A stretch of DNA of 64,000 nt from a virus. Under the pieces are notes generated by a model. It was not told the DNA's origin and searched no databases. It was given only the letters and a program-made list of their open reading frames with translations. Shown here piece by piece: positions 11,858 through 60,908 of this stretch (position 1 is the stretch's first letter; each line of letters starts with the position of its first letter). The translations under genes were made by a program, and so were the position numbers. The DNA is taken from positions 64,001-128,000 of IMG/VR virus record IMGVR_UViG_3300045253_000023. One strand, 5' to 3'.

Positions 11858-12067
11858 GCTGAGTCACATTTATATTCGCTCCTGGCGCATTATGCGCTGA
11901 GCAACACGTGAATAGAGAGGCGCGGGTTCGAATCCCGCATTGAGTAAGGCGTCCACAACTAGCTTGTTTGTGCACAGACAAGCATATCTCGCCATGGGTG
12001 CACCTGGTGCTGGGACGTTTTGATTGGCGTAGTGGTAGCGCACTCTTGCTTATTTTGTTGTCCAAAT

Positions 12068-12232: not shown

Positions 12233-12422
12233 ATTTTATGTAACACAATGGCCTTGCCTATTCATCGGCTCGTCGAGCGTAACGACAGAGGCACGCCAAA
12301 TAATGGGGCACTAGGTGTAGAGCGGGTTCGAATCCCGTATGGTCCAGAATATGGGCTTGCATGGCGCTAGGACGACGGTCCGCTATTGGGGTTCGATTCC
12401 CCTTTGCTCCACTCATAATAAC

Positions 12423-26825: not shown

Positions 26826-27004
26826 GGAATGCCTACAGCCTATATCCGCATTTGAAGCCGAAGGTCGTGTGGTTCGATTCCCACCTGCTCCACAAGAGTG
26901 ATTTGCTCCAGTGTCATTGTCTTTCTCCAATAGTTAGCAAAATCACAGCAGATCACTCTTTTGGGGCAGTAGCTCAGTGGTAGAGCAGCGTAATGCGCAT
27001 TCCG
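26826..27004 (+). ncRNA. CAGC-handle RNA 8 (YrlA-like permuted tRNA module)
   Basis: ggaatgc/gcattcc stem; T arm, extended closed acceptor stem, canonical D arm. Confidence 0.8.
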
Positions 27005-30311: not shown

Positions 30312-30527
30312 ATTCAAGTTCCGAGCTATCGCGGGCAGTAACTCCTGTCTGAGGAAGTTCAGGACTGGCGCAAGGGACGTGTGGAAGATGGTACGGAACA
30401 TCGTTAACACCACCGTGATGATAGCCAGCAAGCCAAACAGAACTAGGGAATCTCTTGCCTATTGGTTCGGGTGGGTGCATAGTCGAATGATAGCATAAAA
30501 CAGAATCCTGGCTACGGGAACTTGAAT
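30312..30527 (+). ncRNA. rnpB: Minimal RNase P RNA
   Basis: P1, P2, P3, P4 with bulged U; GAGGAAGUUCAGGA, AGCAAG, GAAUGAUAGC, ACAGAAUCCUGGCUA. Confidence 0.85.
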
Positions 30528-32349: not shown

Positions 32350-32438
32350 GGAAGATGATCTGCTCTGGGAGCAGCCTTGTCTTGAAAACAAGTGGAACCA
32401 GCAATGGTTTGCAGTTCGATTCTAGCCTTCTTCCTCCA
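32350..32438 (+). tRNA. tRNA-Ser(UGA), irregular
   Basis: cttgt-CTTGAAA-acaag. Confidence 0.78.
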
Positions 32439-60399: not shown

Positions 60400-60810
60400 G
60401 GTAATTGTTGGTGTCCCAACAGGCCGTCATTGCAAGATGAGTGTATGAAGCGAGCCGAAAGGTTCTTTGGACGCGGGTTCGATTCCCGCCATCTCCACCA
60501 AAATGTATTGTGGCGACCATGGGTTCAATTCCCTTAACTCTTAGGCCGAGTGGAAGCGAATGAGGAAAAGAGCTTAGCGGCTCGACAGGTTCAAATCCTG
60601 CTCAGTACATTTTGATGGGGATGCCCAGGTTTCGACAGGGGACATGACTAGGCAAGTGGACACTCCGCCGATGTTACTGGCGATTAAAGTGAAACAAAAC
60701 TCCAAATGCAGCTAACGATGCTGTTTTCGACCAGTCTTCGAACGTTCTTCAGTTCCGCAAGGCTGCTTGATATCAACTGTGATCCCGAGTGGATTCCTCA
60801 ACGGGATATG
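60400..60810 (+). ncRNA. ssrA: Circularly permuted (two-piece) tmRNA; outer ends approximate
   Basis: T arm + CATCTCC-ACCA (ends 60500) precedes GGGGATG..TTCGAC (60617); G3:U70; tag AANDAVFDQSSNVLQFRKAA* at 60708-60770. Confidence 0.92.
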
Positions 60811-60838
60811 GAAGGGCAGGGCAACCTGCCCTTTCTTT
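60811..60838 (+). terminator. Terminator after tmRNA
   Basis: gaagggcagg/cctgcccttt + T-run. Confidence 0.8.
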
Positions 60839-60908
60839 GTATGTTGATCATGCTATTACAATGAATGTCTTGGTTGAGCGTTTGTCGCCGACAATTCAAA
60901 GGAAACTC

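Follow-up and report, generated by a model that had tools for sequence, protein, structure and literature searches.

Circularly permuted (two-piece) tmRNA genes and their intervening sequence were reportedly described by Keiler et al. in 2000 and by Sharkady and Williams in 2004. The spacer of such a two-piece gene is usually treated as disposable. Permuted tmRNA precursors are cut by tRNA-processing enzymes (PMC11915505), among which RNase P and tRNase Z are thought likely (PMC3985003), and one permuted-tmRNA intervening sequence (IVS) contains an intact tRNA-Ala gene (PMC11915505). The IVS studied here resembles these systems in its location between CCA and G1, its removal on maturation and its tRNA-related content. 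It differs from the tRNA-Ala example in that its cargo is not an intact tRNA, matches no model, and has two T arms together with degenerate stems. Relative to that published IVS, a degenerate cargo with two T arms, presumably derived from tRNA, is new.

Another likeness is to mascRNA, a tRNA-like fold directly 3' of the mature end of MALAT1 that is cut by tRNA enzymes and released as a small RNA (PMC8457004). The IVS may work by a similar mechanism, a resemblance drawn by analogy that implies no family membership. mascRNA is eukaryotic, forms a complete cloverleaf and undergoes proven cleavage, whereas our locus has T arms and a D-loop motif only, and its cleavage is putative.

YrlA and other bacterial and phage Y RNAs (RF02553) are similar in being non-tRNA small RNAs with a terminal stem that mimic a T arm and a D loop. 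Yet RF02553 gave no match in the IVS, which also lacks the conserved unpaired motif found after the 5' arm of the phage's own handle RNAs. Both observations led us to reject the IVS as a YrlA-type RNA. A weak YrlA match is present at 26859-26992 (+; 24.9 bits, E 0.23).

Interdigitated double T-loop modules read tRNA elbows at the distal end of T-box stem I, in the RNase P specificity domain and in the L1 stalk; in these modules, two T loops are arranged head to head on one short helix. The IVS shares with them the presence of two T-loop motifs in one RNA. However, its T loops are ordinary terminal loops of two hairpin T arms 66 nt apart, which would be an elbow rather than a reader of elbows, and we rejected assignment to this class for that reason. 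A further comparison is with tRNA pseudogenes and fragments in phage tRNA clusters, in which T arm and D loop can likewise be recognised, the remaining stems have degenerated, and normal thresholds give no tRNA call. Unlike these, the cargo of the IVS lies within a stable-RNA gene, with which it is transcribed and from whose product it is excised.

The permuted tmRNA gene and its closing helix

The source record is a complete T4-like phage of 161,561 bp with direct terminal repeats. Our window, the whole stretch of DNA analysed, is 64,000 nt long and corresponds to bases 64001-128000 of this record; the features of it that are described here lie on the plus strand. ARAGORN identified 37 tRNA genes and one circularly permuted tmRNA in the phage genome (G000). 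The tRNA genes represent 18 amino acids; tRNA-Ser and tRNA-Tyr are absent.

The permuted tmRNA lies in the window, where the Rfam model tmRNA_permuted (RF04321) scored 102 bits against a gathering score of 47, in agreement with ARAGORN. Both place the acceptor piece, which is the 3' half of the tRNA-like domain, at 60439-60500, with its T arm at 60473-60489, its acceptor 3' strand at 60490-60496 and ACCA at 60497-60500 (CCA at 60498-60500). The coding piece (60617-60770) begins with G 60617 (G1) and ends with the tag frame of 20 residues and a stop (60708-60770). An intrinsic-terminator-like hairpin (60810-60835), which together with its T run spans 60810-60845, closes the tmRNA unit. The tag is long and has an RKAA end, where related phage tmRNAs carry the usual hydrophobic ALAA or PMAA. 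Between CCA and G1, the covariance-model alignment delimits a segment of 116 nt (60501-60616) that is removed on maturation, essentially the same interval as the 60500-60616 proposed in an earlier note on this DNA. The coordinates of all parts were verified against the sequence.

The two ends of the IVS pair with each other. The 5' strand (60500-60510) and the 3' strand (60603-60613) form a helix of 11 bp with one G-U pair; apart from the outermost pair, every base pair of it has an ensemble probability of 0.9-1.0. This is the closing helix (aaaatgtattg/cagtacatttt) that the earlier note had described, and it is both real and dominant. Immediately 5' of G1 is a TGAT leader (60613-60616) with U at position -1, presumed to be the RNase P site on the basis of the tmRNA literature (PMC3985003).

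We compared these features with a family sample of 66 distinct phage IVSs, each of at least 57 nt. A flank-anchored pattern, consisting of CCACCA, 95-125 nt and then the conserved tmRNA 5' end, yielded 89 loci from IMG/VR; a stricter version yielded 15 loci from JGI metagenomes. Two further permuted tmRNAs (L030 and L031) were obtained from phages related via a neighbouring gene. A helix of at least 8 bp (8-14 bp), starting 0-1 nt past CCA and ending 4-5 nt before G1, was found in 57 of the 66 IVSs. Cognate IVS ends formed a median of 11 uninterrupted pairs, as against a median of 5 for non-cognate ends, and the 5' strand of the helix occurred in 52 different sequences. The fixed register, and the fact that pairing is kept across 52 different sequences, identify the closing helix as a conserved clamp. 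Within this large family of phage permuted tmRNAs, the clamp is thus both conserved and covarying.

TGAT forms the last four bases in 46 of the 66 IVSs and T occupies position -1 in 64; the window has both. Its helix of 10-11 bp at offsets of 0 from CCA and 4 from G1 falls within the family range of at least 8 bp. The segment in the window therefore shows all three features of the phage clamp-type IVS, namely position, helix and TGAT leader. In the permuted-tmRNA literature, we found no description of the 11-bp fixed-register clamp and TGAT leader of this phage family. A permissive helix scan of the phage genome revealed no CCA-anchored clamp cassette besides that of the tmRNA. A sigma-70-like promoter inside the IVS (60582-60611, +; 9/12 match), with a start near G1, was judged a chance match, because the match count is not above that of shuffled sequences and the family has no fixed -10 hexamer.

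The position of the clamp suggests how maturation might proceed. Beginning on the CCA end and stopping 4 nt before G1, the clamp would join the ends of the tRNA-like domain whatever the interior. By holding CCA and G1 together over a 4-by-4 internal loop, it would allow the acceptor stem to form with any cargo. RNase P would then cut at U(-1)/G1, an endonuclease cut and exonuclease trimming to CCA would follow, and the cargo would leave with the clamp as a hairpin-closed by-product of maturation.

T-arm hairpins and tRNA-likeness of the cargo

Two hairpins in the interior have the complete T-loop consensus. Hairpin 1 (60521-60533) has a 3-bp stem and a 7-nt loop. Hairpin 2 (60586-60600) has a 4-bp stem and lies 2 nt ahead of the clamp 3' strand. 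Both carry G53, U54, U55, C56, a purine at 57 (A57 in either case), A58 and C61, so that the G53-C61 pair and UUCRA loop of a tRNA T arm occur twice. Genome-wide, a rule demanding a UUCRANN loop, a closing G-C pair and a stem of at least 3 bp gave 39 matches in tRNA genes of the 161.5-kb genome and 6 weak matches on the whole minus strand. The minus strand, which is devoid of tRNA genes, was taken as the chance rate, and the resulting expectation for two matches in 116 nt is about 1e-5.

With 6 weak background matches per 161.5 kb versus 2 full-consensus matches in 116 nt, the T-arm hairpins are not due to chance. The stems are short (3 and 4 bp) and have a low ensemble probability, which is what one might expect if the hairpins were accidental T-loop look-alikes in a spacer without history. 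Given the background rate, and the additional D-loop-type motif at tRNA spacing described below, that explanation is extremely improbable. The earlier note was thus correct in recognising two T-arm hairpins here.

The thermodynamic support for the fold as a whole is less clear. The nearest-neighbour ensemble gives the two T-arm hairpins probabilities of only 8% and 27%, and a fold made to contain both is 2.4 kcal/mol less favourable. The hairpins are therefore possible without being predicted; the folding model ignores tertiary contacts, from which T loops gain stability. The whole IVS folds at -31.5 kcal/mol (z -1.38), and 18 of 200 shuffles were equally good, which means that it is no more stable than shuffled sequence. 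Between the T arms, the earlier note had placed a ctctt/aagag helix (60538-60542 with 60568-60572, spanning 60538-60572). This helix, whose loop would measure 25 nt, has a pairing probability of about zero, and 5-mer matches like it are to be expected by chance. Of the proposed double-T-loop fold, the closing helix and both T arms remain, while the middle helix and a stability above shuffles do not. A partial match to the tRNA-Sec model and the fold with T arms forced both point to a small hairpin of 4-5 bp (60570-60583) in the place of a variable or anticodon arm.

Searching 60503-60614 against Rfam, tRNA included, returned no family up to E 10 except for a partial tRNA-Sec match over the variable arm and T arm (12.3 bits, E 4.7). 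The IVS does not yield a cloverleaf above the gathering score of RF00005, the canonical test of a tRNA. ARAGORN at its 80% threshold called no tRNA in the native IVS sequence; at 60%, the cloverleaf drawn over 60538-60608 had a good T arm and a D loop, but its anticodon stem was weak and only 4/7 acceptor pairs formed. A permuted-tRNA reading was rejected, as ARAGORN gave only poor models on the duplicated IVS. The tRNA-Sec model also matches at 32350-32434 (+), with a score of 46.3, just under the gathering score of 47.

A D-loop-type motif of 9 nt with a GG end (60545-60553) precedes the GGTTC of T arm 2 by 34 nt, and of the two T arms only this one has a D-loop GG at tRNA distance. The earlier note had called the IVS a double tRNA-elbow mimic; with a D-loop-type partner at tRNA spacing for the 3' T arm only, this is at best half right. 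In IMG/VR, the combination of this motif and a T arm 24-38 nt apart occurs in 119 viral stretches, 110 of them inside canonical tRNA genes, mostly tRNA-Cys. The gap is 34 nt in the IVS, compared with 31-32 nt in 93 phage tRNA-Cys genes. Since the motif pair is found mostly in canonical tRNAs, the 3' two-thirds of the cargo has a tRNA skeleton, of which the acceptor and anticodon stems are degenerate. Comparison with the phage's own tRNA-Cys gave no significant similarity beyond the T arm.

The IVS is also collinear with the phage's tRNA-Leu(TAG) and with the tRNA-Ser of a related phage (z ~3.5), which is not significant after multiple-test correction. In its 5' third (60509-60541), the cargo is reminiscent of the phage's tRNA-Gly(GCC), from the variable loop through the T arm to the acceptor 3' strand. 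Anchored flank identity, tested against all 37 tRNAs, was 15/24 between the flanks of hairpin 1 and tRNA-Gly(GCC) against a median of 8, again not significant after multiple testing. As neither similarity remains significant once the number of tRNAs compared is taken into account, the cargo cannot be assigned to a particular donor. Moreover, A57 is present in both T loops of the IVS but in only 3 of the 36 scored tRNA T loops of the phage. As A57 is so rare in the resident tRNAs, the T arms of the IVS are not fresh copies of typical resident tRNAs.

The reading that we favour, with somewhat better than even confidence, is that the cargo is a tRNA-derived passenger without a separate task, excised by tRNA-processing enzymes; the enzymes, the tRNA origin and the passenger status are all inferred. 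Under this passenger reading, the first part of the cargo (60509-60541) would be a T arm followed by a stretch resembling an acceptor 3' strand. The second part (60538-60608) would be a nearly full-length tRNA skeleton, with D-loop-type motif, central hairpin and T arm, whose acceptor and anticodon stems no longer pair well. The T arms would be the recognisable remains of tRNA genes acquired in a very tRNA-rich genome. In its simplest form, a fragment comprising the end of one tRNA gene and the greater part of the following one would have entered the slot.

Full T-arm hairpins outside tRNA calls are also found at 11927, 12327, 12392, 12494, 18674, 18913, 20140, 26776, 45920 and 51617 (+). Most other orphan T arms of the genome lie within the tRNA-cluster region. 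At 12327 and 12392, two T arms follow each other at 65 nt, a spacing equal to that in the tmRNA spacer; no tRNA model matches this stretch. Kinship with this two-T-arm stretch (12296-12412) was rejected, as its sequence is unrelated to the IVS beyond the T arm.

Relatives of the cargo and its possible roles

In GenBank phages, blastn matched only the tRNA-like domain and found no relative of the interior. The exact two-T-arm pattern had no matches in IMG/VR, and none of the 89 IMG/VR and 15 JGI metagenome loci retrieved with the flank-anchored patterns has a close homologue of the cargo, although near-identical records may have been excluded from these searches. Relatives identified through the neighbouring gene have at most 57% amino-acid identity; only two of them have a permuted tmRNA, each with a different cargo. 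In these two, L030 (IVS of 133 nt) and L031 (156 nt), which are the nearest relatives by tmRNA, the clamp is present, the interiors are unrelated and T loops are absent. Covariation was seen for the clamp helix across the 66 IVSs; for the cargo, neither a homologue nor covariation was found.

T arms are rare and scattered in the family, with an occurrence of ~3-5%. In the unbiased sample, a T-loop-like hairpin was found only in L063 and in the L100 group. In the L100 group, the likeness is probably accidental, since the hairpin differs from one relative to another. L137/L138 and L225 came to light as further IVSs with T arms in two targeted scans. Two other candidates were discarded: L199 is actually a standard tmRNA preceded by two tRNA-Thr genes, and in L152 the boundary had been mis-assigned. 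We also scanned 185,579 species genomes of bacteria and archaea for permuted tmRNAs in which CCACCA is immediately followed by a T arm, and obtained no example; the 10 bacterial matches were all due to chance, and none was a tmRNA. The earlier note had reasoned that a disposable spacer would not keep two T loops. With no homologue of the cargo, no T loops in L030 and L031 and T arms in so small a part of the family, such 'keeping' lacks support.

Like T arm 2 of the window, the T arms of L063, L137/L138 and L225 adjoin the clamp helix, which hints at a structural role. In L137 (1601-1720), L138 (3191-3310) and L063 (3000-3130), a perfect T arm directly follows the clamp 5' strand, which is not a tRNA topology. 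The whole 76-nt IVS of L225 (896-971) is a cloverleaf-like tRNA mimic with a perfect T arm flush with the clamp, an 8-bp acceptor from the clamp helix, a small D arm without GG, and a weak anticodon-like arm with a 6-nt loop.

Possibly, T arm 2 stacks on the clamp to form the top half of a tRNA-like structure. A tRNA enzyme, be it RNase P or another, would be recruited by this structure and would cut directly behind CCA; the cargo would then contribute to 3'-end formation of the acceptor piece in the way that mascRNA contributes to that of MALAT1. The geometry is partly suitable, with T arm 2 only 2 nt from the clamp 3' strand and a G60512-C60601 pair that can extend the stack. The cloverleaf-like IVS of L225 is in line with such a role, and 3' ends can be defined by tRNA-like elements (PMC8457004). 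However, the distance from the T loop to the base of the helix would be ~17 bp, compared to 12 bp in tRNA, which would place the cut within the helix itself. The 5'-side position of T arm 1, and of the T arms in L063 and L137, is contrary to tRNA topology. Furthermore, ~95% of the family presumably matures without a T arm, which is thus not needed. Altogether, we consider such a role in cis quite unlikely.

An alternative explanation is that the IVS is a selected, stable small RNA whose T loops, one of them with a D-loop-type partner, mimic tRNA elbows. Such an RNA would act in trans and might bind, for instance, an elbow-reading enzyme or RNP from either phage or host. This might be suggested by the T arms, which are perfect and not due to chance, and by the clamp, which would protect both ends of the released RNA. 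The phage further possesses an RNase P-like RNA as well as other non-tRNA RNAs with T arms, and a non-coding IVS subfamily with conserved motifs and covarying hairpins, described below, shows that the cargo of an IVS can be a selected RNA. Against this stand the lack of a homologue and of covariation in the IMG/VR and metagenome searches, and the absence of any matching Rfam family. In addition, the fold is not above shuffles, the T arms form in only a minority of the ensemble, the central helix that had been proposed does not hold up, and ~95% of the family members do without T arms. On balance, a selected small RNA appears unlikely. The earlier note's interpretation is therefore retained in one part: clamp and T arms show that the segment is not a featureless spacer, but the middle helix and the 'kept' T loops are unsupported.

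Still more specifically, the excised, clamp-closed spacer might be a selected tRNA-elbow decoy or adaptor, with T arms that would engage an elbow-reading partner during infection. Candidate partners are the phage's RNase P-like RNA, the phage's Ro60-like particle or a host tRNA-targeting defence. The first of these appears to be without most of its elbow-reading domain. We regard a decoy or adaptor as improbable; if it were true, the tmRNA gene would double as a delivery vehicle for a regulatory RNA. The RNase P-like RNA was recognised by a full-length, below-threshold match to the RNase P RNA model RF00373 at 30313-30526 (+; 46.6 bits, E 2e-10), directly after a tRNA.

Several observations also run counter to the passenger reading that we prefer, among them the placement of T arms beside the clamp in other phage IVSs. 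Both T arms are perfect (28 nt without a consensus or stem defect) and retain a purine at position 57. Perfect T arms beside poor acceptor and anticodon stems form a pattern that selection on the T arms alone would give. The tRNA origin itself is deduced from a single sequence, and the tRNA similarities fail multiple-test correction. As this is one sequence without conservation, the observation carries modest weight.

Exchangeable interiors across phage tmRNAs

The interiors of the 66 distinct IVSs are unrelated to one another. In combination with the family-wide clamp, this shows that the phage tmRNA IVS is a clamped slot with exchangeable cargo, which includes unrelated RNA, micro-ORFs and tRNA-like folds. 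In phages, the spacer of the two-piece tmRNA is therefore a clamped slot with varied cargo, and our window adds to its contents a cargo, presumably tRNA-derived, with two intact T arms. Should the excised RNA prove stable and active, ordinary tRNA processing would be making a second, tRNA-like product from a stable-RNA gene, in a phage where unusual tRNA-like RNAs are already present. As debris, it would still document the movement of tRNA fragments into such slots.

One non-coding subfamily of IVSs (L034, L038, L054, L064, L100, L122, L123 and L125) shares a conserved core of 35-45 nt, in which a motif is succeeded by a GCGGA/TCCGC hairpin; a hairpin with a covarying stem follows. Indels that would shift the frame exclude coding in this subfamily.

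Micro-ORFs of 24-59 codons are present in 17 of the 66 IVSs and start 6-15 nt into the segment, just inside the clamp. The IVS of the window has no ORF of at least 22 codons starting near the clamp, and hence no sign of protein coding. Several of the micro-ORFs are hydrophobic, and several use the TGA of the TGAT leader as stop. They were found in L078, L076, L091, L066/L067/L073, L108/L121, L079/L093/L081, L083, L090, L040/L098 and L134. Between L108 and L121, the DNA differs while the micro-ORF peptide is kept.
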